DNA of 64,000 nt from an uncultured Bifidobacteriaceae bacterium (lineage in GTDB: Bacteria; Verrucomicrobiota; Verrucomicrobiia; Limisphaerales; UBA11358). Below, in pieces: positions 5,011-59,450 of this stretch (positions within the stretch are counted from its first letter, which is position 1; the number at the start of each line of letters is the position of its first letter). The stretch is from the NCBI GenBank assembly GCA_964449815.1, contig CAYVGC010000007.1, forward strand, positions 3,948 through 67,947. The letters run 5' to 3'. The notes below the pieces were generated by a model. It saw only the letters and a program-made list of their open reading frames with translations, had not been told where the DNA came from and did not search any database. The position numbers and the translations under genes are program-made.

Positions 5011-5943
5011 TCAGTCCCTGGCACCGCTTGTTTTTCCGGCGGTCAAAACTTCGTTTGTGCTGCCGCGACGGTAGCCCTGCAAATCCAGCGTGACGTGCGC
5101 GTAGCCGATCTGTTTCAACGCGCCGGCGATTCTGTCCGCCACGCCGTCCGCCAGAAATTTGTGCATTTCCGCCGGGCCGACCTCGATGCGCGCCAGATGC
5201 GAAACCGTTGCGGATTGCGGATTGCGGATTGCGGACTGTTTCGCGGCACCGGCTGCCGGATTTTCAGTCTGCAATCCCCAATCGCCGCTCCGCAATTCAT
5301 GGTGCCGCACGCGCACATCATGAAAACCGAGATCGCGCAGCGCATATTCCGCCAGCTCGATCATCCGCAGCTTGGCTGGCGTCACCGTTTCGCCGTAAGG
5401 CACGCGCGAACTCAAACACGCCATCTGCGGCTTGTCCGCCGTCGGCAGGCCGAGCTGCGCGGACAGCTCGCGGATTTCCGCCTTCGTCAAACCGACTTCC
5501 TTGAGCGGCGCGCGCACCTGGAATTCCGCCGCCGCCTGCGCGCCCGGACGGAAATCGCCGATGTCGCTGGCGTTTTCGCCGTAGGCAATCACCGCAAAAT
5601 TTTCCGCCCGTGCCAGCGGCGTCAGTCCCTCGAACAGCTCGTGCTTGCAGAAATAACAGCGGTTCGCCGGGTTGGTGGTGTAATTCGCGTTGTCAAATTC
5701 CCGCGTGCGAAGGATGCGCACGGAAAACGAGAATTTCGCCGCGATGTCGAGCGCCTCCTGCAGTTCGCGGCGCGGCAGACTCGGCGAATCGGCAATCGCC
5801 GCCAGCGCGCGTTCGCCCAGCACCTCGTGCGCGACGTGCGCGAGAAACACCGAGTCCACGCCGCCGGAATAGGCCACCAGACACGAGCCGCAGCTTTTCA
5901 GCAGCGCCCGTAATTTTTCCAGTTTGTTGTTTGCTTCGCTCAT
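5011..5943 (-). CDS. larE: ATP-dependent sacrificial sulfur transferase LarE, with in-frame palindromic insertion
   Basis: PP-loop VAYSGGVDS, NRCYFCK, DFRPG, ACLSSR and VTLDL.GYR.GS; adjacent to larC and larB. Confidence 0.93.
   Translation of the reverse strand: MSEANNKLEKLRALLKSCGSCLVAYSGGVDSVFLAHVAHEVLGERALAAIADSPSLPRRELQEALDIAAKFSFSVRILRTREFDNANYTTNPANRCYFCKHELFEGLTPLARAENFAVIAYGENASDIGDFRPGAQAAAEFQVRAPLKEVGLTKAEIRELSAQLGLPTADKPQMACLSSRVPYGETVTPAKLRMIELAEYALRDLGFHDVRVRHHELRSGDWGLQTENPAAGAAKQSAIRNPQSATVSHLARIEVGPAEMHKFLADGVADRIAGALKQIGYAHVTLDLQGYRRGSTNEVLTAGKTSGARD
5208..5295. repeat. Heptamer-based inverted repeat inside larE
   Basis: (ttgcgga)x4 at 5208-5235. Arm 5265-5295 matches the reverse complement of 5208-5238 at 25/31 positions, with a 26-nt loop. 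Confidence 0.9.
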
Positions 5944-7256
5944 CGCTTCAAATGCTTCGCGGCCTGAACCGCCGCCTCGTAAATCGTTTTCACCGGCACT
6001 TTTTTCTGCGCCGCCAGTTTTCTGGCCGGCTCGAATTCGGGCGCGGACTGAATCACCTTACCACCAAGCCGGCCAATTTTCACGGTCACTTTGCCGAAAG
6101 CGGTTTTCACTTCGGCAAATTCCCGGCGCAGCTTGCGGCGCTCCGCGAAGGTTTTCCGCACGCCGAACGCGGTGGTTTCGCGCAAAATCAATTCGCAGAA
6201 TTTGTCCGCGTCGGCGTCCGCGCACAAAACCGTGAGCAGCACGCTGGGCCGGTTTTTTTTCATCTGGATCGGCGTGTGAAACACGTCCAGCGCGCCGGCG
6301 GCCAGGGCCGTTTCGACAAAGCTGCCGAGAATTTCCCCGGTGCAATCGTCCAGATTCGTCTCCAGCACGGCAATCCGGTCGGTTTCCCAATCAAGGCCGG
6401 TTGCAGGTTGAGGCGCGCCACCGACCTTGGACTTTGGACTTTGGACTTTGGACTGGGTTCCCAGCACCGTCCGCAGCACATTCGGCCGCGTGACATTTTC
6501 CCGCGTGCCGAGGCCAAAGCCGATTTTTTCGGCGACCAGATTTTCCATTGCGCCGAAGCTTTCGACGAATTCCGCCAGCAGCGCCGCGCCGGTGGGCGTG
6601 ACGAGTTCGTGCGGTTCGTCGCATTGCGTGAGACTGATGCCGCGCGCGCCGAGAATCGCCAGCGTGGCCGGTGCGGGCACGGGAAACCGTCCATGCGCGC
6701 AATCAATCCAGCCGGTGCCTTCGATTATCGGCGAGGCGAACACGCGCGGTTTGCCGAGCAGTTCCAGCACGATGGCCGCGCCGACGATGTCCACGATGGA
6801 ATCCACCGCGCCGACTTCGTGGAAATGGACTTCGTTTGGCGGCAGCCCGTGGATTTTCCCCTCGGCTTCCGCGATGCGCGCGAACACGGCGATGGATTTC
6901 TGCTTCACCCAGGCCGACAGCTTGCTGCGCGAAATGAGCTGTTTGATCTCCGAAAAATTGCGCTGGTCGTCATGCGCATGATCCTGGCGGTGTTCGTGCG
7001 GATGCCCGTGGCCGTGGTGATGATGACCGTGATCATCCGCGTGTTCGTGGTGATGCGCATCCGTGAGATGGACGTCAAACTTCACCCCGGCGATGGCGGA
7101 TTTTTGCCGGCGCGAAACATGGAGATGGTAGCCGTCAAGCTTGAGCTTCTTCAACTCGCGTTCGAGTTTGGCGGCATCCACGCCGAGATCCAGCAGCGCG
7201 CCGATGAACATGTCGCCGGCGATGCCGCTGAAAATGTCGAGGTAAAGCGTTTTCAT
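5940..7256 (-). CDS. larC: Nickel pincer cofactor nickel insertase LarC
   Basis: DIFSGIAGDMFIGALLD, His-rich segment, HFHEVGAVDSIVDI, TPTGAALL, ETNLDD and MKKNRP. Confidence 0.95.
   Translation of the reverse strand: MKTLYLDIFSGIAGDMFIGALLDLGVDAAKLERELKKLKLDGYHLHVSRRQKSAIAGVKFDVHLTDAHHHEHADDHGHHHHGHGHPHEHRQDHAHDDQRNFSEIKQLISRSKLSAWVKQKSIAVFARIAEAEGKIHGLPPNEVHFHEVGAVDSIVDIVGAAIVLELLGKPRVFASPIIEGTGWIDCAHGRFPVPAPATLAILGARGISLTQCDEPHELVTPTGAALLAEFVESFGAMENLVAEKIGFGLGTRENVTRPNVLRTVLGTQSKVQSPKSKVGGAPQPATGLDWETDRIAVLETNLDDCTGEILGSFVETALAAGALDVFHTPIQMKKNRPSVLLTVLCADADADKFCELILRETTAFGVRKTFAERRKLRREFAEVKTAFGKVTVKIGRLGGKVIQSAPEFEPARKLAAQKKVPVKTIYEAAVQAAKHLKR
6426..6453. repeat. Heptamer tandem array inside larC
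   Basis: cttggac(tttggac)x3, translated as QSKVQSPKSKV. Confidence 0.9.
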
Positions 7257-7272
7257 GGAAAAATCATTTCAG

Positions 7273-7350
7273 CCACAGATGCATACAGATTAACACTGAT
7301 GGCAATCTTGCACAGCCGGAGCATCGTGTTTCATCTGTGTAAATCTGCGG
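7273..7350. repeat. Inverted pair of ~10-nt periodic (cacagat-type) repeats overlapping the larB stop codon
   Basis: ccacagatgcatacagatt (7273-7291) and catctgtgtaaatctgcgg (7332-7350). Confidence 0.75.
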
Positions 7351-8095
7351 TCAAAGCATTTATTTGCGCCGCCGCATAGCCGGCGCCGAAGCCGTTGTCA
7401 ATGTTCACCACCGTCACGCCGCTGGCGCAACTGTTGAGCATCGCCAGCAGCGCGGCGATGCCGCCGAAGCTCGCGCCGTAGCCGATGCTCGTCGGCACGG
7501 CAATGACCGGCTTGGAAACCAGCCCGGCGATGACGCTGGGTAGCGCGCCTTCCATGCCAGCCACCGCGACGATGACACTGGCTTTTTGAAGGGTTTCCAT
7601 CCGCGCCAGCATCCGGTGGAGGCCGGCGACGCCGACGTCGTGAATTCTTTCCACGCGGTTGCCCATGATTTCGGCGGTGACGGCGGCTTCCTCGGCCACC
7701 GGTAAATCGCTCGTGCCGGCGCAAATGACGGCGATGAAGCCGGGGCGCTTGGGCAGGGGGTTGGTCTCGATGGTCACGCAGCGGGCAAGCGCATGATGCA
7801 CCGCGCGCCTGAATTTTTTCCGCAACGCGCGGGCGTGTTCGGCGGCCACCCGGGTGACAAGCACCGGCTGGCCAAGCTCCAAAAGCTTGGCGGCGATTTT
7901 GACGACCTGTTCCGGCGTTTTGCCGGCGCCAAAAATGACTTCGGGGAAATTTTTGCGGAGCGCGCGGTGCGTGTCCACCTGCGCAAAGCCGAGGTCGGCC
8001 ACCGGCGCGGACTGGAAGGCGCGCAGGACTTTTTCGCCCGGAATTTTTCCGGCGCGAAATTGTTCCAGCAGGCGGGCGGCCTCGGTCGTTGTCAT
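7331..8095 (-). CDS. larB: Pyridinium-3,5-biscarboxylic acid mononucleotide synthase LarB
   Basis: FAQVDTHRALR..FPEVIFGAGKT, AGTSDLPVAEEA, DVGVAGLHR, VAGMEGAL and NIDNGFGA. Confidence 0.95.
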   Translation of the reverse strand: MTTTEAARLLEQFRAGKIPGEKVLRAFQSAPVADLGFAQVDTHRALRKNFPEVIFGAGKTPEQVVKIAAKLLELGQPVLVTRVAAEHARALRKKFRRAVHHALARCVTIETNPLPKRPGFIAVICAGTSDLPVAEEAAVTAEIMGNRVERIHDVGVAGLHRMLARMETLQKASVIVAVAGMEGALPSVIAGLVSKPVIAVPTSIGYGASFGGIAALLAMLNSCASGVTVVNIDNGFGAGYAAAQINALTADLHR

Positions 8096-8280
8096 CGCAG
8101 GACAATGCCTCACGAGACGCCTGCTGTCACGCGGGAAAACCTGGGGCGGCGGCTTTATGCGACCAAGCTCGCACTTTGCCGGTGAATTTGGAACCGCCGG
8201 ATAAAACGCCGGTCATCCCCTGCCCTTCCGCGCCGTTCAGCGGCGAAACAAAAATCCAGGCGGCAACTTTCAAAGATTTT

Positions 8281-9949: not shown

Positions 9950-10816
9950 ATGAAGGTGAACCGACAACCGATTTGCCGCCGCGCGTTCACGCTGATTGAA
10001 CTGCTGGTGGTCATTGCCATCATTGCCATCCTGGCGGCCTTGCTGCTGCCGGCGCTGGCCGCTGCCAAGCAAAAGGCGTTTCGGATTCAATGCACCTCGC
10101 AGATGAAACAGATTGGTCTGGGTTTCACCCTGTTTACGGGCGACCACGAGGATAAATATCCGCCGGCGGCGTATTCCACCGGAGCCTATCAATACCAACT
10201 GACTTGGGATGATTACTTGAACCGCTACATCGGCGGCTCTGATTCTGATGCCGACCTGATGCTGGGCGCTTCCAGCGCCGGCATTCCAGCCATCTTGAAA
10301 TGTCCGGCCGACCGGATTGAAATCACCATTGCCTGGGCAACTTTCGGCCAGCGCAGAACCTATTCCATGAATGGCGCCGATCAGATTGAAATCGGCGCCA
10401 ACGGCAGCGTGGCCTTGCCGGCCAAACCGACGCACGGCGTGGGCGCTTACCTTTATAAAAGTGACGGGGCGTTGCCGCCGTGGGAGCCGCCGGGCTACAA
10501 AAACAACATTGTGGCCGATCCGGCGGGAACCATCCTGCTGGCGGAGCAGCCGGAAGGCGGAAACATCGCCGGCAATGATTATCCGTCTTTTTGCATGGGA
10601 CCGACCGGGCCGGCCATCGCCGGCGACCAGACGCCTTACCAGATTGTGACTGGCGGATCTCAGGCTTATGGGAGTTCTGCCTACGGCCTGCACAGCCACC
10701 GGTTCAATTATTTGTTCCATGACGGTCATGTGGAAACCCTCAAAATCGAGCAGACCACCGGCATCGGCACCGTCACCGCTCCCAAAGGGATGTGGACCGT
10801 GACGGCGGGCGATTAA
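9950..10816 (+). CDS. Prepilin-type N-terminal cleavage/methylation protein with H-X9-DG motif (DUF1559-like)
   Basis: [26 protein letters not shown] and [15 protein letters not shown]. Confidence 0.92.
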
Positions 10817-11237: not shown

Positions 11238-11328
11238 GCGGTTCATGGGGAAGACTGGCCGGGCGCAAGGATCGGGGCAAAAACGCATGGCCGGGCCGGG
11301 GCCGGATTGGCCAGCCCGGTCCAACTCA

Positions 11329-11688
11329 CTACATCAACACCCGATAAAACCACGCGGGCGCAACCATGCCTGCCGGATCAAGAAATTGATATGGACTCAC
11401 CAGCAGATTGGAAAAAGTTTGCAGCGGCATCCAGTTGGTGCCGGCCAAATCCGGGCTGTATTGCACCATGAAATTGTTGTTCAACATCCCGTTCAAGTTC
11501 AGCAGCGGGTAACGCGCCGTCAATTGCAAGGCCAGCGACGGCGGCACCAGCACCACCAGCAACCTTGCAGCGTCTTCCCGCATACTTGCAGAACATTCCC
11601 GCAAACCTGCAACGTCTTCCCGCAAACCTGCAACGTCTTCCCGCATACCTGTAGAACGCTCTCGCAAACCTGCAGGGTCTTCCCGCAT
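11329..11688 (-). pseudogene. Orphan C-terminal sorting-like module fused to repeat-derived heptads; probable remnant of a secreted protein
   Basis: C-terminal LNLNGMLNNNFMVQYSPDLAGTNW...FLDP...WFYRVLM. The N-terminal part is translated 21-bp repeat, upstream units carry in-frame TAG, and there is no signal peptide. Confidence 0.55.
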
Positions 11689-11880
11689 ACCTGCAGAACG
11701 CTCCCGCTAACCTGCGGGGCCTTCCCGCTTACCTGCAGAACGCTCCCGCTAACCTGCGGGGTCTTCCCGCTTACCTGCAGAACGCTCCCGCTAACCTGCG
11801 GAGCCTTCCCGCTAACTTGCAGAACGCTCCCGCTAACCTGCGGGGTCTTCCCGTAGGTTTGCGGGAAGGCTCTGCAAGCT
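11563..11880. repeat. 21-bp minisatellite, 14 units plus one terminal inverted copy
   Basis: Units acctgcagaacgctcccgcta and acctgcggggtcttcccgctt alternate over 11563-11856. 11857-11880 is a reverse-complement copy. Confidence 0.95.
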
Positions 11881-14782: not shown

Positions 14783-15727
14783 ATGAAGATCCAATCCAAT
14801 CCTCGAAAGGCTGTCGCCTGCCACTCCGGCTTCACCCTGATTGAGCTGCTGGTGGTGATCGCGATCATCGCCATTCTGGCGGCCATGCTGCTGCCCGCGC
14901 TCACGAAGGCCAAACAAAGGGCGCAGAGCATTTCCTGCATGAGCAACACCAAGCAGATCATGCTCGCTTGGAACATGTATGCCAATGACAACAATGATTT
15001 CGTGCCCCCCAATGATTATCCTTATCTCACCGCCTACTTTGGCGCCGGGGCAAACCAGATCAAAATGAAGAACTGGGTGGTCGGCACCATGGAGCAGCCC
15101 GCCGATGCAAACGATCTCCAGAGCAAGACGGGCGTCAGCGAGCTGTTGGATCCCAACACGCTGCTTTCCCCCTACCTACAAAGCAAACCTGTTTATCATT
15201 GTCCGGCCGACAATTACATAGACACCTACGCGGGGAACCAGGTCCATGTGCGCAGTTATTCCATGAACTCTGCGGTCGGCACCACTTGGTCCGCCTTCTA
15301 CCAATATGGTTCACCGACCATCGGCTCCCCGGTTCAAGGCGGCTGGCTGCCTGGAAGTGTCTATAATTCAAGTCAGACAACCTGGCTGACCTACGGGAAA
15401 ATGACCTCTTTTACCCGGCCGGGGCCGGTCAACACCTGGGTAATTATGGACGAGAACCCCTTGACCATTAACGATGGCTCATTCGCGGTGTCAGCCTTGG
15501 CGACTGCGGGAACCACCTATCTCATTGACTATCCGACCGGCCTCCACGGCGGTGCCGGCGGACTGGCTTTTGCGGATGGTCATTCCATCGTGCATAAATG
15601 GCAGGACCAGAGCACCTATACTCCCCCTGCCAGCATGCATGGCCAGGGCGGCGGCGGGTCAACTTCAGAGTCGCCCGGCAACCCCGATCTTCTTTATCTG
15701 GCTCCGCTGACTTCGGCAGCACGCTAA
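14783..15727 (+). CDS. Prepilin-type N-terminal cleavage/methylation protein with H-X9-DG motif
   Basis: [26 protein letters not shown] and [14 protein letters not shown]. Confidence 0.92.
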
Positions 15728-23490: not shown

Positions 23491-23508
23491 TAATCTTAAT
23501 CCTAATCC
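23491..23508. repeat. Hexamer array (taatcy)x3 at the aroA stop / cmk junction
   Basis: taatct taatcc taatcc; the aroA TAG (23502-23504) lies inside it. Confidence 0.6.
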
Positions 23509-24893
23509 GCAAACAAATCTTCGCCGCTCAATTGCCGCGTGCGCCGGCCGTTTTTAATCTCCCAGATCTCCGCGCCCAGGCCGTGCGGCGGCGGCGCGGC
23601 GAGCTTCTGGAAAAAATTCGGGAACGTCTTTTTAACGCAGGCGGGATTTTTAATTCTTATGCCGGGAACTTTCAATCCCAGAATCGCAAAGCACATCGCC
23701 ATGCGATGGTCGTTGTAAGTTTCAATCTCCGCGCCGTGCAGCGGCGACGGCCAGACCGTCAGCGTATCTCCCTTCTCGACCACTTTCGCGCCGCACTTGG
23801 TCAACTCCGTCCGCAACGCGACGACGCGCTCGCATTCTTGGACACGCAAGCGAGCTAAATCTGTAAAAAAAGTCGAATATGGTTCAGGTGACTTAACCAC
23901 GGTCGTTTTTGGAGGCGCGTCAAAGGGCTTCAAGACAATTGCAGTCATTATAGAATCACCTAAATCAGTCTTTCTCGAAAGTTTTTTCGGAAAACCAAAA
24001 TAGTCTGAAAATTTAGCGTCAATCTGCCAGCCGGAAGTTGGCCAATGCCTGACAATACATTGATTAATATCCGAATTCACACAAGCCAGCCAAACCAACC
24101 ATGCCGCACCCCAAAAATAACTTCCGCTGCTTGCATCCGGCTCGATTTGAAAAGTTCCGCCGTTTTTCGGAAACGCTTCTATCAATTTCGAAGTCATCAC
24201 CACATACGGTGATTCCTCCGCGTTCTCGCCGACGATTTCAATTTCCCAGCCGCCAATTTTGGAAGACAGCAGCAGCGCCGACGCAAACTGCGAGCTGTCT
24301 TCGATGCTGACCTTACAATGCTTCGTCGCAACCGACGTGAGGAGGCTCTGAACTTTTTTAGTTTGAGCCTCGTCACCTCGGCTGCCACCGCCAAAAATTC
24401 TCACCGGCAGCTTGTCGTTGCCCTTTTCCGATTCCACGCGATAGCCGAGTTCGCGCAGCGCCGAAAACAGCGCCGCCTGCGGACGTTCGTGCATCCGCGG
24501 CACGCCGTGCAGACGGTAAACACCGCTGCCCAGACACAGGAACGGGGCCAGAAACCGCGCCGCCGTGCCCGCATTGCCGACAAACAAATCCAGCGGCTGC
24601 GCCGCCGGGCCGCCGCGCGGCACCATGCCGCCCTTGCCATAGACCGTGATGGTGCGGTTGCAAGATTCTGCCGGATCGGTCTCCACATTCACCATGAAGC
24701 CAAGCTCTTGCAAACACTCGACCATGATTTGTGTGTCCTCGCTCCAGAGCGCGCCGCGCAAAATCGTCTCGCCGTCCGCCAGCGCGGCGAGAACCAGCGC
24801 GCGGTTCGTGATGCTTTTCGAGCCGGGCACGGTGATTTCCGCCTGCGCCGGCTTGTCCAGCGGCACAATTTCGATGAGGTCGGGAAGCGGCAT
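23502..24893 (-). CDS. aroA: 3-phosphoshikimate 1-carboxyvinyltransferase
   Basis: PGSKSITNR, GNAGTAARF, RMHERP, SSQFASALL and DHRMAM. Confidence 0.95.
   Translation of the reverse strand: MPLPDLIEIVPLDKPAQAEITVPGSKSITNRALVLAALADGETILRGALWSEDTQIMVECLQELGFMVNVETDPAESCNRTITVYGKGGMVPRGGPAAQPLDLFVGNAGTAARFLAPFLCLGSGVYRLHGVPRMHERPQAALFSALRELGYRVESEKGNDKLPVRIFGGGSRGDEAQTKKVQSLLTSVATKHCKVSIEDSSQFASALLLSSKIGGWEIEIVGENAEESPYVVMTSKLIEAFPKNGGTFQIEPDASSGSYFWGAAWLVWLACVNSDINQCIVRHWPTSGWQIDAKFSDYFGFPKKLSRKTDLGDSIMTAIVLKPFDAPPKTTVVKSPEPYSTFFTDLARLRVQECERVVALRTELTKCGAKVVEKGDTLTVWPSPLHGAEIETYNDHRMAMCFAILGLKVPGIRIKNPACVKKTFPNFFQKLAAPPPHGLGAEIWEIKNGRRTRQLSGEDLFAD
24325..24388. repeat. REP-like inverted repeat inserted in frame in aroA
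   Basis: gcaaccgacgtgaggaggctc / gagcctcgtcacctcggctgc, translated as GGSRGDEAQTKKVQSLLTSVAT. Confidence 0.85.
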
Positions 24894-26999: not shown

Positions 27000-27845
27000 T
27001 CAAGTTTGCGTCTCGTCAATAAATGTTTCTTTGATGCGTTCCAAAATCACGTCGGCCAGCAGCGGTTCGGTGCCGACGGACGGTGAATACCAGAAAAGCT
27101 TGCCGTGTTTCTCCGTCGGATTGCGCCAGGTCGGCCGGCCGGCGGCGTGACGTTCTTTTACGATGCGTTCCGGTTCGCCGAGCAGCACCGGAATATCCTC
27201 GACCACATGCAGCCCGTCGCTGATGAAAAACGGCACGACGACGCAGTAGTTTGTCTGCGCCAGCAAATGGCAGATCTCGATGCGCGGTTCTTCTTCCATG
27301 AAAACCGCGCGGACCGCCGCGTAAATTTTTTGCGCGCGGATCATTTCCGCCTGCCGTTCAATGGCCCTGCGAGAATTTTTATTTTTCTCAGTGCCGTGGC
27401 CGGCGATGAAGAGCGTGGTTTCCGCCGGCTTCGGCGCACGAGGGAATGGAAACTTCTGAGCGATCCCGGCAGCGCGCGATAAAATCACTTTCGTCATGCT
27501 GTCGTGCGTGCCGGCCGGGCGGCAGTAAAACAGTGACGAGTGACGAGTGACGAGTGACAGGTTATCCGGAAAACTGAAGCCGAGTCCCTTTGGAATGATT
27601 TCCGTGCTGAAATAGCCTTCGCTGATGAACAGCGGCGCGATGAAGATTCTGGGCGCGGAGATTTCCGCGAGAATTTTTTTGATCTGCGGCTCCTGTTTCC
27701 AGAAGGCCTCGCGCACCTCGCGGAAAATTTTCCGGCGGCGCAGTTCCGCCGCGTGCTGGTAAACCGGCGCGGCGGACTGGTCGTTCAACTCCGTGCCGTG
27801 GCCGAGGACGACGAGCACGGAACCGGAAAATTTCTCACGGTTCAC
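27000..27845 (-). CDS. cbiX: CbiX/SirB-family tetrapyrrole chelatase (two-domain)
   Basis: VLGHGT, PLFISEGYF, second domain AGHGT, PFFISDGLHV.EDIP. Confidence 0.8.
   Translation of the reverse strand: MNREKFSGSVLVVLGHGTELNDQSAAPVYQHAAELRRRKIFREVREAFWKQEPQIKKILAEISAPRIFIAPLFISEGYFSTEIIPKGLGFSFPDNLSLVTRHSSLFYCRPAGTHDSMTKVILSRAAGIAQKFPFPRAPKPAETTLFIAGHGTEKNKNSRRAIERQAEMIRAQKIYAAVRAVFMEEEPRIEICHLLAQTNYCVVVPFFISDGLHVVEDIPVLLGEPERIVKERHAAGRPTWRNPTEKHGKLFWYSPSVGTEPLLADVILERIKETFIDETQT
27532..27559. repeat. Heptamer array inside cbiX
   Basis: (agtgacg)x3 agtgaca, translated as SLVTRHSSL. Confidence 0.9.
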
Positions 27846-33469: not shown

Positions 33470-34648
33470 ATGAAAAATCCGCTTGTCCATCGCGGGACGG
33501 GGGCATTCACGCTGGTGGAATTACTGACGGTCATCGCCATCATCGGCATTCTGGCGGCGCTGCTGATGCCGGCGTTGGAGCAGGCCAAGGCCCGGGCCAG
33601 ACGGATTCAATGTGTGGGCAACCAGAAGGAAATCGGCCTCGCCCTCCATTTGTTTGCCAACGACCACAGCGGAAAATTCCCGACGCAAGTCTCCACCAAC
33701 GACGGCGGTTCGCTGGAATTCGTCACCGCCGGGTATCACATCCACGGGCCGTTTTATTTTTCCTTTCAACATTTCCGCCCGCTCGCCGGCACCCTTGGCA
33801 CGCCAAAACTCCTCGCTTGTCCGGCAGATCTGGAACGCTGGGCGGGGACAAATTTCATCCAGTTTAACAACCGGAACTTGAGTTATGAAATCGGGCTCAT
33901 CACGGATGCCGGCAACCCCGGAGTGATTCTCGCCGCTGATCGGAACGCCCCCAGCCATCCCGACCCTGCCTACAATAGTCCGGACATCAGGTTGATACCC
34001 TGCCCGCCCGGCTTAAATCATTGGGGACTGAATTTACATGAAAGAAAAGGCAATTTGCTTTTCTCGGATGGCCATGTGGAAGAATCTTACGACACAATCA
34101 TCGCGTCGGAAGAAACCACGTCCGAAGATCTTGTTTATCCAGAGGTGAAGGCGTCCACCGGATACTCGCCGCCGGGCGGCCCCGGCGGAATGCCCTCCCA
34201 AAACAATCCACTGATCCCGTCGGCGCAAGTGGCGCAAACCCCGTCGCTGCCAGTAATCGTCCGTCAGGGATTTTCCAACCAGGCCAGCGCTGCAAACGCC
34301 AGCAGCCCCGCATCAGGCAATTCAACCTTCTCAAACCAGCCCGCCAGTCCGACGATGGTTGATTTCAATGCCCAGGACCACATGAGAAAATTTTTCACGG
34401 CTAGTCCGGTAACTACCCATGCAACGGTGCCGCAGACGAATCGTGCCATCGTGGCTGTTCAAGTCGCCACCAACATCGTTCCGGCAACGAACGATGCTGC
34501 GGGCATGTCTGATGCAAACCGCCGGCTGGTAAAGATTTTCCAAAAGGTGTTTGGCTGGGGTTATCTGCTGCTGCTGCTGTTTCTGCTGTGGCTCTGGTTC
34601 AAATTGCGGCGGAAATGGCGGCGGTGGCGGCAGCGGCAAAAGTGTTGA
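33470..34648 (+). CDS. Prepilin/H-X9-DG protein with Ser/Pro/Thr-rich linker and C-terminal membrane anchor
   Basis: [24 protein letters not shown] and terminal [29 protein letters not shown]. Confidence 0.85.
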
Positions 34649-37671: not shown

Positions 37672-39600
37672 TTGAAGCGACATTATATCCGCGTGCATCG
37701 CAAAATCCATCTGTTCGCGGCGGCTTGCTTTTTGTCGGCGGCGTTGAATCTCGCAGCGCAGGGAACCGCCATCTTCTATCAGGGCCGGCTGAATGATTCC
37801 GGCGTGCCGGCCAACGCCAGCTACGATTTGCGCTTCGCCGTTTACGACGCCCCGACCAACGGCAACTGCGTCAGCCTCTTGCTGACCAATTATGCCGTGC
37901 CCGTGGCCGGCGGCCTGTTCACCGTCACGCTGGATTTCGGCCCCGGCTTTTTCAACGGCACGGACAACGGCTCGAATTATTGGATGGACATCGGCGTGCG
38001 CGCGATTGGCGTCACCAACTTCACCGCGCTGCTGCCGCGCCAGCCGGTTCTGCCCGTGCCTTACGCCCTCTTTGCCACCAGCGCCAGCAACCTGCTCGGC
38101 GCGCTGCAAAGCACGCAGCTCGCCGGCACGATTTCGTCCTCGCTGATTTCGGGGACATATTCCAACGGGGTTGATTTCTCCAACGGCACGAACACCTTTG
38201 CCGGCGCTTTTTCCGGCAATGGCGCCAGTCTGACCACCTTGAACGGCTCGCAGATCACCAGCGGCACGGTGGCCGACGCGCGGCTGACCACGAACGTCGC
38301 CCTGCTCAACCGCAGCCAGACATTCACCGGCACGAACACCTTTGCCGGCACCAATTTTTTCAACGGCGTCAACACCTTCACCAACTGGGGAAACTCGTTC
38401 ATCGGCAGTTTTTTTGGCAACGGCCTCGTCGGCTGGCTGGCAGTGAACGGCCCGGCCACCAATGCGATGCGAGATGCCGGCTATCTGCTGCTCAATCCCG
38501 GGCTGACCACCGTGACGCTGCCGGCGACGACCGCGCTTGCGCCGGGCGACATCGTGCGCATTTCCGGCGCGGGCGCGGGCGGCTGGCTGGTCCAGGGAAA
38601 TTCCGGCCAGTCCATCCTCGGCAACTTCGCCAGCTACCGCAATTCCCTGCTGTTGCCGGGCGCGACCGGCAATGACTGGCGGCGCACCTGCTGTTCGGCG
38701 GACGGCACCCGGATGTATGCGGGCGGCACCGTGGCCAACGGCGTTTATTACTCCACCGATTTCGGCCAGACTTGGAGTCCCACGACCATCTCTGGCAGCG
38801 GTTGGTTTTCCGTCGCCTGTTCGGCAAATGGCAACATCATTTATGCCGCGCCCAACGGCGGCAGCATTCAGGAGTCGGTCAACGGCGGTTTGACATGGAC
38901 AAGCGGCACCAGCGCGAACTGGACGGCGGTCGCCTGTTCGGCGGATGGCAGCAAATACATCGCCGGAGCAACGAGCGGCGGGCTGGTCAGCTCGACCGTC
39001 AGCACCCCGGCGAGCGGCCATTGGACTGCCGTGGCCTGTTCCGGTGACGGGAATAATTTCGCCGCCGCCCTCGGCAGCACCATTTACACCTGGACCAACG
39101 GCGGCTCCGGATGGGTGTTCAGCGGCGTGCCCGGCAGTTGTTCCGCGCTGGTGGCCGCCAGCAGCGGGTTGAAACTCGCCGCCGCCTACAATGGCGGCGT
39201 CGCCACCTCCACCAACTTCGGCGCGAGCTGGACGACCACCACCGGGGGCGCATTCAGTTGTCTCGCCGGCTCCAGCGATTGCAACCGGCTCGTGGCCGGC
39301 GTCAGCAACGGCCTGCTTTACGCCTCCGCCAATTTCGGCGCGACGTGGACCGCCCTCACCACCACCAATCAATATTGGTCGGGCGCGTGCATGACGGCCG
39401 ACGGCAGCAAGTTCGCCGCGACTGCCAGCACGGTTGGCGGCAGCACCGGCGGCATTTACTATTCCGGTGCCAGCGCGCAGCCCAACACCATCACCACCAA
39501 TGCCATCAGTGGCAGCCAGGGTTCGGCGGTGGAACTCCAATACATCGGCAACGGCCAGTTCATGCCCGTCAGCTCCGCCGGCCTGCTGTGGGCGAATTGA
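37672..39600 (+). CDS. Large secreted protein: QGTAIFYQGRL-type N-domain, fiber-like repeats and repeat-rich beta-propeller-like C-domain
   Basis: Signal peptide, repeated W..V(A)CS.DG and S..FG..W motifs. Confidence 0.75.
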   Translation: MKRHYIRVHRKIHLFAAACFLSAALNLAAQGTAIFYQGRLNDSGVPANASYDLRFAVYDAPTNGNCVSLLLTNYAVPVAGGLFTVTLDFGPGFFNGTDNGSNYWMDIGVRAIGVTNFTALLPRQPVLPVPYALFATSASNLLGALQSTQLAGTISSSLISGTYSNGVDFSNGTNTFAGAFSGNGASLTTLNGSQITSGTVADARLTTNVALLNRSQTFTGTNTFAGTNFFNGVNTFTNWGNSFIGSFFGNGLVGWLAVNGPATNAMRDAGYLLLNPGLTTVTLPATTALAPGDIVRISGAGAGGWLVQGNSGQSILGNFASYRNSLLLPGATGNDWRRTCCSADGTRMYAGGTVANGVYYSTDFGQTWSPTTISGSGWFSVACSANGNIIYAAPNGGSIQESVNGGLTWTSGTSANWTAVACSADGSKYIAGATSGGLVSSTVSTPASGHWTAVACSGDGNNFAAALGSTIYTWTNGGSGWVFSGVPGSCSALVAASSGLKLAAAYNGGVATSTNFGASWTTTTGGAFSCLAGSSDCNRLVAGVSNGLLYASANFGATWTALTTTNQYWSGACMTADGSKFAATASTVGGSTGGIYYSGASAQPNTITTNAISGSQGSAVELQYIGNGQFMPVSSAGLLWAN

Positions 39601-39730
39601 ATCGCGGCGTTCCAGCCTGCCTGGCGGGCTGGCGCAAAAGGGTCGGCAACTGTGGCTGATTTTGCCGCCGTGCCGGAAAAGTTGTTTCCTTTTCATCCCG
39701 GCTCATCTGTGCAAATCTGTGTCTGAAAAT

Positions 39731-40702
39731 ATGGCTGCTGAAAATCCCATCATCATCTGCACGCGCGGCAGTGCGCTGGCGCTGGCGCAGGCGAACCTGG
39801 TCGCAGCGCAATGCCGCGCGGCGTTTCCCGACCTGCAATTCGAATTGAAGATCATCAAGACCACCGGCGACAGGTTGCAGAAGGCCTCGATGGCCAAGAC
39901 CGACCCGGGCCTGCCGAAAGGTTTGTTCACCAAGGAACTCGAAATTGCGCTGCTCAATGGCCGCGCCGACCTCGCGGTCCACAGCCTGAAAGACCTGCCG
40001 ACCGAGCTGCCCGCCGGCCTGATTCTCGCCGCCACGCCCAGACGCGAGGACGCGCGGGACGTTTTGATTTATCGCCGCGCGGGCAACGCCACCAGGCGCG
40101 GCTGCAAGGCCAACGCGACGTTGAAGGATTTTCCCAAAGGCGCAACGATCGCCACCAGCAGCACGCGGCGGAAGATGTCGCTGCTGGCAGCGCGGCCGGA
40201 TTTGAACATTGTCGAAATTCGCGGCAACGTGGCCACGCGGATGCAGAAGGTCGCCGGCAAAACGGAAATTGACGCCACGGTGCTCGCGCTCGCCGGCATC
40301 ACGCGGCTTAAGTTTACGATCAAGGCCGACGGCACCCTCACCGGCGAAGATGTGCCGGAGGGCTTGCTCGCCTCGGTGCTGGATTTTGAGGCGATGCTGC
40401 CATGCGTGGGCCAGGGTGCCATCGGCATCGAGACGCGCGCGGACGACGGGCGCATGGCGAAGATTTGCGCCAGGCTGAACCATGCCGAGACGTTTCATTG
40501 TGTGACGGCGGAACGCGCATTTCTGCGCGGCATGGGCGGCGGCTGCCAGAGCCCGGTGGGCGCGTTCGCGGAAATGACGGGGAACGAGATTTTGCTCCAG
40601 GCCATTTCCTTCCGCGATGCCTTGGTGAAGCGCGGCCAGGCCACGCGCCCGACTGCCGAAGCCGCGCTGCTCGGCGAACAGATCGCGGAAGAATTGAAAT
40701 AA
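39731..40702 (+). CDS. hemC: Hydroxymethylbilane synthase
   Basis: TRGSALALAQ, KGLFTKELE, AVHSLKD, TSSTRR and GGCQSPVG. Confidence 0.96.
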   Translation: MAAENPIIICTRGSALALAQANLVAAQCRAAFPDLQFELKIIKTTGDRLQKASMAKTDPGLPKGLFTKELEIALLNGRADLAVHSLKDLPTELPAGLILAATPRREDARDVLIYRRAGNATRRGCKANATLKDFPKGATIATSSTRRKMSLLAARPDLNIVEIRGNVATRMQKVAGKTEIDATVLALAGITRLKFTIKADGTLTGEDVPEGLLASVLDFEAMLPCVGQGAIGIETRADDGRMAKICARLNHAETFHCVTAERAFLRGMGGGCQSPVGAFAEMTGNEILLQAISFRDALVKRGQATRPTAEAALLGEQIAEELK

Positions 40703-40777: not shown

Positions 40778-42667
40778 TTATGGCTTCCAGATCATGTCCG
40801 CCACGGTCTTGTTGGCGGGAATGAACGGAATGACATGCGTGCTGTAAGGCGTCACCACGTCGAGCACGTAAGGCTCGTCGGCGTCGAGCATCCGCTGGAT
40901 GGCGGCGCGCAGATCTTTTTTGAACATCACGCGCTCGCATTTCACGTTGAAAGAATTACAGACGCGGACATAGTCGGGATAAATCTCCGGCCGGTGGTCC
41001 GGGTCGCCGAGATAGGTGTGACCGCGGTTGCCGGCGTAGAATTTATCCTCCCATTGCACGACCATGCCGAGGTGCTGATTGTTCAGGATGATGGCCTTGG
41101 CGGCAATCTTCTCGACGTGCGCGGTGGCGAGTTCCTGAATGTTCATCAGGAACGAACCGTCGCCGTCAATGTCAATCACCTGCTTGTCCGGCAGCGCGAC
41201 CTTGATGCCGAGCGCGGCAGGATAGCCGAAGCCCATCGAGCCGAGGCCGCCGCTGGTGATGAACTGGCGCGGGTATTTGTATTTATACCATTGCCCGGCC
41301 CACATCTGGTGCTGGCCGACGCCGGTGGTGATGTAAGCCTCGCCTTTCGTGAGCTCGTAAAGCGCCTCGACGACCATCTGCTGAAGAATCACTTCGTTCT
41401 CGTGGCCCTGCATGTGATCCACCATGTGATCGCTGTTGGCGATTTCGGGCGTGACGCGGTAGGCGAACGGTCCTTTCTTTTTCCATTCGTCAATCTGCGC
41501 GAGCCAGGCGGCATGCTGCTTGGCGATGGGCCGTTGCGCGACCAGCTTGTTCAGGCGCGTCAACGCGTCCTTGATGTCACCGACCACGGGCAAATTCGCC
41601 CGGCGGTTTTTGTTCAGCTCGGACGCGTCAATGTCCAGATGGACGATCGTGCCATGTTTGCAAAACTCCTCAAACTTGCCCGTGACGCGGTCGTCGAAGC
41701 GCACGCCGAAAGCGAGCAGCAAATCCGCGCCGTCCTTTATCTTCACCATCGGGCCGTTCGGATCTTTGCGGTATTCATATTCGCCGTTCACCGCCCAGTT
41801 CGCGAAGGCCGCGCCATGCATGCCGAGCCAGCGGAGCGAAAGCGGATGCGTTTCGGGAAAACCGCCGATGCCCATCAGCGTCGTCGCCACGGGAATGTTG
41901 GTCGCCTCGGCGAATTTTTTCAATTCCGCCGCCGCGCCGCTTGAGATGATGCCGCCGCCGCAATAAATCACCGGCCGTTCCGCCTTCTCAATCAGGCCGA
42001 TGATTTCATTCAACGCCACTTCGTCCGCCTTCAAATCCGGCTGCGTGTAGCCGCGCAGACCTTTTTTGACCTCGTCGAGCGCCGGCCAGACCGGCTGTGT
42101 TTTCTGCTGCTGGAGGTTTTTTGGAAAATCAACCACCACCGGGCCGGGGCGGCCGGATTGCGCGATGTAAAACGCCTCCTTCACCACGCGCGGAATGTCG
42201 TTGATGTCCGTGATGAGATAGCTGTGCTTCACGATGGGCAGCGTCACGCCGATGATGTCGGTCTCCTGAAACGCGCCGCGTCCGATCATCGCCTGATGCA
42301 CCTGCCCCGTGATGGCGACGAGCGGACACGAATCCATATAGGCATCCGCGATGGCGGTGACAAGATTCGTCGCGCCGGGGCCGCTGGTGCCCATGCACAC
42401 GCCGGCCTTGCCCGTCGCGCGGGCGTAGCCTTCGGCGGCGAAACTGCCGCCCTGCTCGTGGCGTGGAAGAATGGTGCGGATTTTTGACCTGGTCAGCGAC
42501 TGATGGATTTCCATGCTCGCGCCGCCGGGATAGGCGAAGATGACCTCGCAGCCTTCACGTTCGAGGGCTTCGACGAAGATGTCGCGCCCGAACATGGCCG
42601 GGCCGACCTCGGCGCGCGGGGTGGCGGATTTGGTTTTCGCTTTTGCGGATTCGGTTGTTTTGCTCAT
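40778..42667 (-). CDS. ilvB: Acetolactate synthase large subunit
   Basis: FAYPGGA, RHEQG, TSGPGATN, GVGQHQMW and ThDP motif GDGSF..N. Confidence 0.97.
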   Translation of the reverse strand: MSKTTESAKAKTKSATPRAEVGPAMFGRDIFVEALEREGCEVIFAYPGGASMEIHQSLTRSKIRTILPRHEQGGSFAAEGYARATGKAGVCMGTSGPGATNLVTAIADAYMDSCPLVAITGQVHQAMIGRGAFQETDIIGVTLPIVKHSYLITDINDIPRVVKEAFYIAQSGRPGPVVVDFPKNLQQQKTQPVWPALDEVKKGLRGYTQPDLKADEVALNEIIGLIEKAERPVIYCGGGIISSGAAAELKKFAEATNIPVATTLMGIGGFPETHPLSLRWLGMHGAAFANWAVNGEYEYRKDPNGPMVKIKDGADLLLAFGVRFDDRVTGKFEEFCKHGTIVHLDIDASELNKNRRANLPVVGDIKDALTRLNKLVAQRPIAKQHAAWLAQIDEWKKKGPFAYRVTPEIANSDHMVDHMQGHENEVILQQMVVEALYELTKGEAYITTGVGQHQMWAGQWYKYKYPRQFITSGGLGSMGFGYPAALGIKVALPDKQVIDIDGDGSFLMNIQELATAHVEKIAAKAIILNNQHLGMVVQWEDKFYAGNRGHTYLGDPDHRPEIYPDYVRVCNSFNVKCERVMFKKDLRAAIQRMLDADEPYVLDVVTPYSTHVIPFIPANKTVADMIWKP

Positions 42668-45343: not shown

Positions 45344-45427
45344 ACCACGAAACACACTGAACACCCGAAATAAAAACGGACGGCTGGGTTCAGTATTCCT
45401 TTTCGTGTGGTTTGTGTATTTCGTGGT
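45344..45427. repeat. Inverted pair of ~10-nt periodic repeats
   Basis: accacgaaacacactgaacacccgaaa (45344-45370) and tttcgtgtggtttgtgtatttcgtggt (45401-45427). Confidence 0.75.
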
Positions 45428-45845: not shown

Positions 45846-47270
<1,425 letters not shown>

Positions 47271-47373
47271 GCAGCGAGATTGCTCAAAAAACGGCGGCGT
47301 GCCAAGCCTGCTCGAACAGTCGCGGCCCGGCAAATCGCCGACGCCGCGCCGGCTGGTCCTGAACCGTGAGAGT

Positions 47374-56114: not shown

Positions 56115-56122
56115 AGTTTTTA

Positions 56123-56157
56123 GGAGCTGGGTGTTGGGAGCCAGGAGCCAGGAGCTT
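56123..56157. repeat. Heptamer array just upstream of the FN3 gene start
   Basis: ggagctg ggtgttg ggagcca ggagcca ggagctt. Confidence 0.75.
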
Positions 56158-56228
56158 GGAAAATGAGGGAAAAGCTGCATCCCACAGGAAATGAAGCATT
56201 TGCGAACCTATGCGCGTCCGCCCCGGGC

Positions 56229-56528
56229 AAAACGACGGTCGGTTTGGCAGGCGCGGGCGTGCGGCAGGCGGGAAAAGCGCTTTTATGGGCTGGGGCGGAC
56301 CCGCCCTGGCCGCGACGACCGTCGTTTTGGGCGGCGCGAGCCGGCGGCGGGCGATAAAAGCGCTTTTGCCGGCCGGGGCGGAACTTCCCCGGTTAAAACG
56401 ACGGTCGTTTTGGCAGGCGCGGGCCTGCGGCGGGTGAAAAAAGCGCTTTTGCCGGCTCGGCGCGGCCCCGCCGGGGTGAAACGACCGTCGTGATGGGGTG
56501 GGGCGGACCGGCCTGGGGTATAAACGTT
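56229..56528. repeat. Array of two alternating palindromes with 83-bp period
   Basis: Core acgac(c/g)gtcg starts at 56232, 56315, 56398 and 56481; aaaagcgctttt starts at 56273, 56356 and 56439. Confidence 0.9.
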
Positions 56529-56696
56529 GCGGCTGCGGTGGCACTTTTGCGCAGCTACGGCGAAACCATTGAACGTTTGACAACTTTCGCATGGCTTGCG
56601 GGTTCAATTAGCCGATAAAGGCTGAAGGCTGTCAATTTAATAGCCCCAAATACCAATCGGCACCCAGAGAATCACAAGAAAGGGTGAGGCTCCGGC

Positions 56697-57779
56697 CTAG
56701 CCGCACTGCGCGCGCTGGCGCAGCGCGTGATCCACGAGGACGAGCGCGGTCATCGCCTCGACCATCGGCACGGCGCGCGGCAGCACGCACGGGTCGTGCC
56801 GGCCCCGGCCCTTGAGCGTGGCGTTGTGCAAAGCCTCGTCCACCGTGTCCTGCTCGTGCATGACGGTGGCGACGGGCTTGAACGCGGTGCGGAAGAAAAT
56901 GGTTTCGCCGTTGGAGATGCCGCCCTGGATGCCGCCGGAACGGTTGGTGGTGGTGAAAACTTTCCCGCCCTTGGCGCGGAAGGCGTCGTTGTGCTCGCGG
57001 CCCGTCAGCAAAATCCCCGCGAACCCGTCGCCGCTCTCAAAACCTTTGCACGCGGGCAGGCTCAACATCGCCTTGGCCAGATCGGCTTCCAGCTTGTCGA
57101 ACACCGGTTCGCCCCAGCCGGCGGGCACGCCGCGCGCAACGCCTTCCACGATGCCGCCGACGGTGTTGCCGTAGGTGCGCATCTTTTCGATGAGCCGGAT
57201 CATCTTTGCCGCGGCCTTCGCGTCGGGGCAGCGGACGATGCTGGCTTCCACGTCCTTGAATTTCACCTTTTCAGGATCAACCGCGCCGATGATTTTCTGC
57301 ACCTGCTTGACGTAGGCGAGAATTTCCACGCCGAATTTCTCGCGGAGAATTTTTTTTGCAATCGCGCCGGCGGCGACGCGGCCAATGGTCTCGCGGGCGC
57401 TGGCGCGTCCCCCGCCCTGCCAGGCGCGGATGCCGTATTTGGCGAAGTAGGTGTAGTCGGCGTGCGAGGGACGGAACTTGTCCTTCATCTCGTTGTAGGC
57501 CTCGGAGCGCGCGTCCTCGTTTTTCACCCAGAGGCAGATTGGCGTGCCGAGCGTGAGGCCGGTGGTGGAGATGCCGGACAAGATTTGGACCGTGTCGGAC
57601 TCCTGGCGCGGGGTGACGATTTTGGACTGGCCGGGCCGGCGGCGGTCCAAGTCCGGCTGGAGGTCCGCCTCGGAAAGCCGCAGCCGCGGCGGGCAGCCGT
57701 CCACCACCACGCCCACGCCGCCGCCGTGCGATTCGCCCCACGTCGAGATGCGGAACAATTGTCCAAAACAGCTTGCCAT
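56697..57779 (-). CDS. aroC: Chorismate synthase
   Basis: [40 protein letters not shown] and GRHDPC. Confidence 0.97.
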
Positions 57780-58136
57780 GGGGCGAGTGTGCGAAAAATC
57801 TGGCACCCGGTCAAATGCGGTCTCTTCCCGCCCAGGCCGGTTCGCAGGCGTGAAGCGGCGCGGTTGTCAGACCAGATGAAATCGTCACCCCGCCCGGCCG
57901 CGCCACTTGCATGACCCCCGGCCGGCGGATGACAAAGGGTGGCCGCCGGCCGGGTGAGGGCAAAACTTCCAAGCAGCCTTGACGCGCGCCGATAAAAGCG
58001 TAGGTTCACTGGCAATGAACCCGACGCTGAAAGTGATTCTTTCCGAACCGCGCGGCGTCAAAGAGCAAACCCCGTCAATTAAAAGATCATCATCGGCCCG
58101 GTTTCAACTGAACACACCTGGAAGGAGAACACAAAT

Positions 58137-58778: not shown

Positions 58779-58908
58779 CCAGTCCGACGGCTGAAACCGT
58801 TTTAATCCGCCGCCCTTCGCCCAATGATCGGAGAAGGTGTCCGCAGGACGGGTGAGGGAATGGTTGATATACGCCCATTCTCTGATTCCAGTTTTCAGCT
58901 TTTGTTTT

Positions 58909-58938
58909 TGTTCCGCACCTGAATGTTCCGCACCTGAA
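58909..58938. repeat. 15-bp direct tandem repeat x2
   Basis: tgttccgcacctgaa tgttccgcacctgaa. Confidence 0.7.
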
Positions 58939-58994
58939 AACTTTTCAAGTGCCATGGCTACCATGCAGCGGAATCAATTTTCCCGGCTCATTCG

Positions 58995-59450
58995 TCATTT
59001 TCTGGAACGACCATGCAATGCCTTGTGAATCCGGCGCAGCAGGCGTTTTTCATTGTTCCGTGAAAGCTCGTGTTCCCAAATCCGCAGCACCTGCCAATTG
59101 GCCCGGCGCAAGACGCGGTTCACCAGCCGGTCACGGGCGAGATTGCGGGCGAATTTGCGTTTCCAGAACGCGCGGTTGCCGGCGGGCTGCGTGCCGTGTT
59201 TAGGACAGCCGTGCCAGAAACAGCCGTCCACGAAGATTGCCGTGCGCGATTTGTGGAAAACAAAATCCGGCCTCACTTTGAATTTCCGCTTTTCGCCTTC
59301 CACTTCCCGAATTTCAAAATGCCTCCTCCATCCGGTGATTTTGTTCCGACGCAGCAATTTCACCAGCGCGATTTCCGTGGCCTGGTTCCCGCGCGAGCGG
59401 ATGCGCGACATCACCTCCGAACGCTTTGCCTTGGTGAAAACGTCTGACAT
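58995..59450 (-). CDS. vsr: Very-short-patch-repair (Vsr-like) endonuclease
   Basis: SDVFT..KRSEVMSRIR, PDFVF, IFVDGCFWHGCP and RIWEHE. Confidence 0.92.
   Translation of the reverse strand: MSDVFTKAKRSEVMSRIRSRGNQATEIALVKLLRRNKITGWRRHFEIREVEGEKRKFKVRPDFVFHKSRTAIFVDGCFWHGCPKHGTQPAGNRAFWKRKFARNLARDRLVNRVLRRANWQVLRIWEHELSRNNEKRLLRRIHKALHGRSRK
59279..59320. repeat. Degenerate heptamer array inside vsr
   Basis: tgaattt ccgcttt tcgcctt ccacttc ccgaatt tcaaaat, translated as FEIREVEGEKRKFK. Confidence 0.55.

Follow-up and report, generated by a model that had tools for sequence, protein, structure and literature searches.

In-frame heptanucleotide arrays at variable loops of core enzymes in a Verrucomicrobia genome

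Results

Within a 64-kb stretch of contig CAYVGC010000007.1 (hereafter the window; GC content ~59%), which derives from a soil or freshwater member of Verrucomicrobia subdivision 3, order Limisphaerales, we found five exact tandem arrays with a period of 7 nt, each 3.9–4.9 units long and each built from a different unit. All five lie in frame inside open minus-strand genes: larE, larC, cbiX and, at two sites, a phosphomannomutase-type gene (PGM/PMM, hereafter PGM). The arrays belong to a known, poorly understood class of repeats; what is new is their mainly coding location, their hot-spot behavior in essential enzymes, and their concerted evolution together with length changes in 21-nt steps. 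The explanation that we favor, at a probability of roughly 55%, is that the arrays arise when strands slip or templates switch in a 7-nt register and are then filtered by reading frame and loop tolerance, with repetitive extragenic palindromic (REP) elements landing in the same loops.

Arrays in the window were detected using Tandem Repeats Finder (TRF; score threshold 30) together with a scan for exact runs. In larE (5011–5943; PDB LarE, E = 1e-33), the array at 5208–5235 comprises 4.0 copies of TTGCGGA (TCCGCAA on the coding strand) and encodes the peptide SAIRNPQSAT. The larC gene (5940–7256; Pfam Ni_insertion, E = 4e-138) contains 4.0 exact copies of TTGGACT at 6427–6454, reported by TRF as (GTCCAAA)x4.6 at 6423–6454 and translated as QSKVQSPKSKV, and cbiX (27000–27845) contains 3.9 copies of AGTGACG (coding GTCACTC) at 27532–27558, translated as LSLVTRHSSL. 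The PGM gene (45846–47333) carries 4.9 copies of ATTTCCG (coding CGGAAAT) at 47134–47167 (site 1, peptide WKSEIGNRKSEI) and 4.1 copies of TTCGGAG (coding CTCCGAA) at 46799–46827 (site 2, RLRTPNSELRI). Codon shuffling within five genes yielded a period-7 run of at least 21 nt in 0 of 2,000 shuffles compared to the 5 observed, and triplet shuffles of the whole window gave 0 period-7 runs. Exact arrays of at least 3 units were absent from the window at periods 5, 6 and 8–15. The arrays are real and far beyond chance.

An earlier, sequence-only reading of this DNA had described heptamer arrays, mostly of 4–5 units, and REP-like palindromes as repeatedly inserted in frame into housekeeping genes. 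The unit number was borne out, as were the arrays in larE, larC, cbiX and PGM and a palindrome in aroA, and array frequency exceeded that in codon-shuffled sequence. A proposed member in vsr proved weak. The latter is a purine-rich minus-strand stretch at 59274–59315 (GAAATTC GGGAAGT GGAAGGC GAAAAGC GGAAATT CAAAGTG) that matches itself at period 7 in 18 of 35 positions, goes unreported by TRF at score 30, and adds 5 amino acids relative to Escherichia coli Vsr; its membership is doubtful. Arrays had also been proposed just 5' of start codons, and these turned out to be short. On the minus strand, 56123–56157 lies 8 nt upstream of an ATG at 56115 and has degenerate flanks around 2.7 exact copies of GGAGCCA (56137–56155; TRF score 38); on the plus strand, the TTCAACC-like stretch at 2112–2136, upstream of an ATG at 2151, is degenerate, spans ~2–3 units and was not reported by TRF.

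Based on gaps against solved structures and on a model of PGM domain I, the arrays lie in loops. The LarE element adds 33 amino acids where Lactobacillus plantarum LarE has a single residue, the LarC array falls in an interdomain linker ~12 amino acids longer than that of solved LarC, and the two PGM arrays fill gaps of +10 and +5 amino acids relative to the Thermus structure 1tuo. AlphaFold modeled PGM poorly as a whole (mean predicted local distance difference test score of 56, with residues 171–375 below 50), and domain I alone was used; there, the site 1 array is predicted to span the end of a helix and the loop leading to the strand KVVIGYD, and the site 2 array to lie in the loop after a domain I helix. 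In the Deinococcus CbiX homologue 2jh3, the corresponding loop is about the same length as the array-bearing loop, which indicates that the cbiX array replaces native sequence with no net insertion. For cbiX, the insertion described in the earlier reading was thus not confirmed.

Our comparison set consisted of ~240 related loci, all from Limisphaerales genomes assembled from metagenomes. At PGM site 1, motif length was constant, at 35 amino acids in 118 of 120 close orthologues and at 31 amino acids (the span of the regular expression used) in 53 of 70 genome loci. The unit differed by lineage, being GGAAATC, CGAAATC, AGAAATC, AGAAGTC, CAAAGTC, CGAACTC or CACAGTC, and the four units shifted together, with peptides such as KSEIGNRKSEI, KSEVQSPKSKV and SELRTPNSEL found at one and the same position. 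In cbiX, two main unit types (GTCACTC and AAAACTC) each occupied all four units at constant length. Units within a genome were more similar to each other (identity 0.74 and 0.68) than were orthologous positions between genomes (0.64 and 0.62). This co-variation amounts to concerted evolution of a short coding microsatellite, and many arrays are old residents turning over in place rather than fresh insertions. The phrase 'repeatedly inserted' was thus too strong for PGM site 1 and cbiX, where units change together at constant length. The encoded peptides vary with the unit and show no amino-acid conservation among orthologues, as opposed to being conserved where DNA periodicity is missing.

Length comparisons among alleles revealed both replacement and stepwise change. 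Array-bearing loops had nearly the length of their native counterparts in glycyl-tRNA synthetase (GlyRS; 46–51 versus 47 residues) and at PGM site 2 (32–34 versus 37 residues). The PGM allele GGAAATCTGAAATTTAC of locus L429 holds 1.6 units and falls short of the 4.6-unit alleles by exactly 21 nt. At PGM site 2 of locus L430, a 21-nt block of three units has been duplicated, and these have diverged (TTCCGCA CTCCACA CTCCGCA). All 120 PGM and 80 CbiX orthologues were in frame. Among cluster members of at least 90% identity, we saw no array differences, the only differences being in start-codon calls, and we therefore rejected strain-level hypervariability; the loops are hypervariable, as had been proposed, between species but not between strains. 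Frame switching by unit number, the hallmark of contingency loci, was not found among near-identical strains or among the 120 PGM and 80 CbiX orthologues.

Different fillers were found at the same loop positions, alongside array-free alleles, in LarC, LarE, GlyRS, AroA and both PGM sites, as the earlier reading had anticipated. The LarC interdomain linker of the window, QSKVQSPKSKVGGAPQPATGL (6393–6455, minus strand), consists of the GTCCAAA array followed by a decayed CTCAACC array of which a single CCTCAACC is left. Across 80 LarC orthologues, this linker spans ~3 to ~40 residues between conserved flanks. At least seven heptamer units are represented among its peptides, and it also occurs with inverted array pairs, with REP-like palindromes of at least two families and as short array-free alleles. 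Between the window and locus L001, whose LarC is the best match (93% identity), the DNA flanking the linker aligns almost unchanged and the linkers are wholly different. GlyRS, whose gene adjoins larC in many relatives, has one site occupied by native GHPGEPQP, by five kinds of array or by three kinds of palindrome. On the right, the native flank CCGCAACCG (Pro-Gln-Pro) is matched by the array units CCGCAAT and CCTCAAC; on the left, the native flank GCGGAAAT is matched by CGGAAAT. Array units can thus be followed back to the sequence beside them.

The whole LarE element (33 amino acids; 5197–5295, minus strand) has a perfect right arm at 5208–5235, a loop of ~29 nt and a degenerate left arm that reads TTGCGGA GCGGCGA TTGGGGA TTGCAGA on the plus strand (5265–5295). 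It is an inverted pair of heptamer arrays, unlike the REP element of aroA, and has a predicted hairpin energy of -50 kcal/mol. Locus L001 carries the same larE array as the window, seven related loci have an empty 18-amino-acid allele, VRVRHHEMQKQNLARIEV, and in L071 one arm alone has been kept uniform and complementarity is lost.

The palindrome in aroA (23502–24893) is a minus-strand doublet of 24-nt arms (24325–24348 and 24365–24388) that are 83% complementary and separated by a 16-nt loop. It encodes GGSRGDEAQTKKVQSLLTSVAT, a segment missing from solved AroA structures and from empty orthologues. Its arms differ by 2 and 3 mismatches from a REP of the clade, GAGCCTCCTCACGTCGGCTGCTAC, of which we counted 44 copies (≤4 mismatches) over 34 loci in 2.0 Mb of related loci, including 8 inverted pairs within 120 nt. 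The other strand of this REP starts with GTAG (the consensus ends in CTAC), a tag that is also present in L309, whereas the two arms in the window have mutated versions of it (GTGG and GCGAC). Judged by its family, with many dispersed copies and inverted doublets, the element fits the GTAG-type REP/REPIN kind, so the palindromes named in the earlier reading are real but form a separate, known kind (PMC3733652). Across orthologues, the aroA site is empty, filled with heptamers or occupied by other palindromes, and AroA proteins are 433 to 527 residues long. Near residues 272, 298 and 327–339, AroA has additional insertion hot spots that are filled in 46–68 of 120 orthologues and empty in the window, and an AT-rich patch at 23860–24140 stands out from the remainder of aroA by its composition.

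We also examined signs of mobility. An inverted partner lay within 150 nt of 16 of 114 strong arrays compared to 0–4 in controls, and arrays were present in the loops of GTAG-REP doublets in L309 and in an AroA orthologue. No transposase or RAYT domain was detected in the ~50 open reading frames of the window, in agreement with the earlier reading, and no reverse transcriptase domain was found in them either. A diversity-generating retroelement was rejected on the latter ground and because variation consists of whole-unit change and is not adenine-specific. For 87 (AAATCCG)n arrays, the flanking sequences were listed; no target duplications were seen around them, and flanks were shared in one Planctomycetes sub-group alone. 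In this sub-group (L286, L290 and L298; Planctomycetes/Phycisphaeraceae), the sole one with shared flanks among the arrays listed, (AAATCCG)n of 6–13 units always adjoins a conserved GCGCTAAACCGCAAGCGGTTTATGATTCGAA; the arrays of L290 and L298 reach the end of the fetched stretch. Scanned against Rfam at gathering thresholds, the window returned no match; the hairpins thus belong to no described RNA family.

The arrays extend well beyond the window. In 1.5 Mb of related loci, period 7 was the most frequent TRF class (271 matches), with 237 of the 271 arrays (~87%) in frames of at least 150 amino acids; of 18 likely non-coding arrays, 15 had 3.3–5 units and three had ~2 units. In 744 kb comprising the window and 80 LarC loci, the lengths of exact period-7 runs were bimodal, with a second peak at 25–30 nt. 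Searching one genome per species for exact matches, we found identical (AAATCCG)4 in at least 120 stretches; their sources included Verrucomicrobiota, Planctomycetota, Acidobacteriota, Chloroflexota, Bacteroidota, Patescibacteria and Proteobacteria. Among the matches listed, 108 of 119 (AAATCCG)n arrays lay in stop-free frames of at least 150 amino acids, and array length peaked at 31–34 nt; smaller classes lay near 40 and 45 nt, and arrays of 54–58, 77 and 92 nt also occurred. In viral contigs, 21-mers of AAATCCG and AAAGTCC occurred in 25 and 16 stretches and those of three permuted controls in 4, 7 and 16, against an estimated ~0.04 by chance.

Because permuted units are also far above chance, the process is specific to the period and not to sequence or clade. 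A unit-specific, clade-bound element or fixed repertoire was accordingly rejected, given (AAATCCG)n in many phyla and the abundance of permuted units in viral contigs, and the earlier proposal of a period-constrained, sequence-flexible process held up, so that the core inference of that reading was largely right. Certain units are shared by sites that are otherwise unrelated: CGGAAAT by PGM and GlyRS, CTCAACC by GlyRS and LarC, and CGAACTC by PGM and CbiX. The coding strand of array DNA is 33% A, 30% C, 19% T and 17% G.

Two further observations were made on the cross-phylum matches. The Acidobacteria metagenome-assembled genome SZAS-13 contributed nine of the loci listed (L252, L256, L261, L267, L270, L272, L280, L300 and L320) with at least 13 arrays of (AAATCCG)≥4, several of them in inverted pairs ~100 nt apart, which suggests that arrays are very dense in certain genomes beyond Verrucomicrobia as well. 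In six loci (L243, L251, L275, L277, L308 and L313), (AAATCCG)n abuts a second, unrelated heptamer array, with TGTCCGA, GGGCCAA, CAGAAGG, TCCTAAT and GCTAATC as the second units.

The closest relatives of the window's LarC, PGM and CbiX were found only in metagenome-assembled genomes of Verrucomicrobia subdivision 3. Several contigs that are clearly verrucomicrobial, carrying LarC 70–93% identical to that of the window (L001, L022, L024, L028 and others), have titles such as 'uncultured Bifidobacteriaceae' or 'Klebsiella sp.' and look like mislabeled bins. In the window, larE and larC form a minus-strand nickel-pincer cofactor cluster (5011–8113) with larB (AIRC domain, 7331–8113); other genes encode multihaem cytochromes (2741–4724) and three DUF1559/N-methyl (prepilin-like) proteins (9950–10816, 14783–15727 and 33380–34648).

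Several other repeats are present in the window. The motif CACAGATGCATACAGATTAACACTGAT ... CATCTGTGTAAATCTGCGG occurs at 7270–7350, in the intergenic DNA separating larC and larB, and upstream of hemC (39700–39735), where it is read as ...HLCKSVSEN, with a related stretch before vsr (~59460–59470); it looks like another repeat family of the clade. The extra segments of hemC (39434–40702) and of an ilvB-like gene (40778–42667) contained no array and no palindrome on inspection. A tandem array at 11561–11853 has nested periods of 21, 42 and 84 nt, ~14 copies of the 21-nt unit and no heptamer substructure on inspection, and ends in a 37-nt inverted repeat (11797–11833 and 11840–11876); it is probably non-coding because the surrounding open reading frame (11245–11856) has low third-position GC and no Pfam match. 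Between the start of a minus-strand open reading frame (ATG at 56115) and the chorismate synthase gene (56697–57806), an intergenic repeat at 56218–56472 comprises 3.1 copies of an 83-nt unit (75% matches), each holding two short palindromes, AAAACGACGGTCGTTTT and AAAAGCGCTTTT. Finally, an intergenic hairpin at 45344–45427 (ACCACGAAACACACTGAACACCCGAAA and TTTCGTGTGGTTTGTGTATTTCGTGGT; 27-nt arms, 81% complementary, 30-nt loop) is flanked by one gene resembling a sugar isomerase and another resembling rbsD/fucU.

Discussion

We infer that slippage is the enzymatic cause of the arrays and selection the filter. Heptanucleotide microsatellites would arise and turn over in coding DNA when strands slip or templates switch as the DNA is replicated or repaired, starting from a seed of ~1.6 units, that is, a 4–5-nt direct repeat at 7-nt spacing supplied by local sequence. 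Within genes, only changes of three units (21 nt, 7 codons) would keep the frame, allowing 1.6, 4.6 or 7.6 units, and such a constraint would explain why surviving arrays cluster at ~4.6 units (31–34 nt) and differ in 21-nt steps. Cycles of gain and loss would keep the units alike while their sequence drifts, and inverted array pairs may result from fold-back template switching. Selection would retain arrays that are free of stop codons in all three frames, that have an A+C-rich coding strand specifying hydrophilic Ser/Lys/Arg/Pro/Gln/Asn peptides, and that sit in surface loops or interdomain linkers tolerant of changes in length and sequence. GTAG-type REP doublets, as mobile palindromes, would be a second, independent in-frame filler that selection confines to the same loops.

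Several points weigh against this account. Classical slippage adds units singly, yet from a 1.6-unit seed the intermediates of 2.6 and 3.6 units are out of frame and would inactivate essential genes such as GlyRS. To our knowledge, a single-step jump of three units from so short a seed has no precedent. Native loops are often overwritten at constant length, which pure expansion does not predict, and the same units (CGGAAAT, CTCAACC and CGAACTC) recur at unrelated sites. The absence of copy-number variation among near-identical strains implies that the arrays do not change at a high rate today. Intergenic arrays of Xanthomonas and Nostoc (PMC4692102) and Geobacter (PMC2700814) are likewise reported to favor about four units. 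Together with the predominance of 3.3–5 units among our own non-coding arrays (15 of 18), this indicates that the frame filter is not the whole reason. The choice of period 7, the lethal intermediates, the constant-length overwriting and the intergenic four-unit preference leave room for a hairpin element or an enzyme that writes the tracts.

We consider it unlikely that the arrays, especially the inverted pairs, are non-autonomous hairpins resembling miniature inverted-repeat transposable elements or REPINs, moved in trans (for example, by a RAYT-type HUH transposase), that target a structure instead of a sequence and land in genes. Such an element would account for the presence or absence of the 33-amino-acid inverted-array element of LarE between relatives, the excess of inverted partners (16 of 114 arrays), the arrays inside GTAG-REP doublet loops (L309 and an AroA orthologue), the recurrence of units at unrelated sites, and the complete exchange of the LarC linker between genomes with 93% identical LarC and nearly unchanged flanking DNA. 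It is hard to reconcile with the lack of conserved flanks or target duplications around the 87 arrays listed with flanks, with five different units at the sites of a single window, with units that match their local flanks, and with the abundance of arbitrary permuted units. Moreover, L071 LarE keeps one arm alone uniform and has lost complementarity, and no transposase was found among the ~50 open reading frames of the window.

About equally unlikely is a dedicated enzyme, shared by many phyla, that writes a tract of ~31–34 nt by copying a 7-nt template repeatedly into a resected gap and so overwrites the DNA there; candidates would be a repair polymerase, a primase-polymerase or a reverse-transcriptase-like enzyme. 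Replacement of native loops at near-constant length, the joint change of all four units, the sharp peak at 31–34 nt across phyla (among the matches listed) and the intergenic four-unit preference of Xanthomonas, Nostoc (PMC4692102) and Geobacter (PMC2700814) are what such an enzyme would leave. However, no candidate enzyme was identified here, the 21-nt gain and loss alleles and the arrays of 40–92 nt fit ordinary slippage, and, since ~90% of the cross-phylum arrays listed lie in long frames, the frame filter alone could give the peak.

That there is no DNA-level process, and that the arrays are selected low-complexity linkers or assembly artifacts, is very improbable: the peptides are indeed hydrophilic and in loops, but the DNA periodicity is exact even at positions that would be synonymous, the peptide at one PGM site changes wholly with the unit, orthologues show no amino-acid conservation, 0 of 2,000 codon shuffles gave an array, and the same arrays appear in many independent assemblies, including megabase-scale contigs.

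A broader idea, which we regard as doubtful, is that a widespread bacterial DNA transaction writes tracts of ~4.6 x 7 nt (31–34 nt) from a local heptamer and overwrites resident sequence. If true, loops in Verrucomicrobiota, Planctomycetota, Acidobacteriota, Chloroflexota, Bacteroidota and Patescibacteria would be continually re-coded, and the four-unit rule of Xanthomonas, Nostoc and Geobacter would be the signature of this transaction, not of G-quadruplex or reading-frame selection.

Translated arrays at defined loops of essential enzymes, followable through hundreds of orthologues, give an anecdotal repeat class a readable history of array-free alleles, 1.6-unit seed states, 21-nt gain and loss alleles, and concerted unit change. 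From this history follow predictions, open to testing, as to the polymerase or the step in repair that works in a 7-nt register. In practical terms, the tracts and REP doublets inflate protein lengths, give rise to spurious 'hypothetical' similarity among proteins that are unrelated, and mark insertion-tolerant loops usable for protein engineering.

The arrays resemble several known systems in part. Like contingency loci, the phase-variable simple sequence repeats (SSRs) of pathogens, they have units that are not a multiple of three inside coding sequence; in contrast to those loci, all alleles seen here are in frame, no strain-level variation was found, and the genes encode core metabolic enzymes rather than surface or restriction functions. 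Rickettsia palindromic elements are likewise small in-frame repeats tolerated in housekeeping proteins at fold-compatible positions, but their sequences are unrelated, their hosts belong to a different phylum from the free-living, large-genome bacteria studied here, and our fillers are mostly tandem heptamers and not one palindromic family. GTAG REPs have been described in the PVC superphylum, with REPs inside open reading frames (Di Nocera 2013, PMC3733652). The aroA element shares with GTAG-type REPs and REPINs (Bertels and Rainey 2011, PMC3116915) an arrangement of two inverted 24-nt palindromic units and membership in a dispersed family, whereas the window copy lacks an exact GTAG and is translated within an essential enzyme.

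The heptanucleotide excess in bacteria has reportedly been noted since 1990, as short tandemly repeated repetitive (STRR) sequences, and again in 2007 by Mrazek, with no mechanism attached. Published work mostly treats such repeats as intergenic regulatory or structural DNA. Our literature search on heptamer arrays in Verrucomicrobia found nothing specific. According to Mrazek 2007, as relayed in PMC4679880 and PMC4692102, heptanucleotide repeats are the most abundant class of long repeats in most genomes, and slippage related to the polymerase footprint was proposed for them; the specificity for period 7 found here is in line with that excess. Described cases include GGGAATC in Xanthomonas and GGGGA(C/T)T in Nostoc (Rehm 2015, PMC4692102), 'four heptanucleotide repeats' within and between genes of Geobacter metallireducens (Aklujkar 2009, PMC2700814) and TAACTGA in Beggiatoaceae (PMC4679880). 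The arrays described here are like these and the cyanobacterial STRR sequences in having tandem 7-nt units, about four of them, in genome dispersal, in occasional inverted pairs and in lacking a linked transposase, and are like the Geobacter elements in also lying inside genes. They differ from the mainly intergenic repeats of Calothrix, Nostoc and Xanthomonas, which have one or a few dominant units, in that ~87% lie in long reading frames with no depletion from genes and in that many different units occur per genome. Their units also lack G-tracts, and the argument that four units serve to form a G-quadruplex therefore does not extend to them. Finally, in distinction to the heptanucleotide SSRs described so far, orthologous arrays can here be followed across a whole order, with concerted change and alleles that differ in 21-nt steps.

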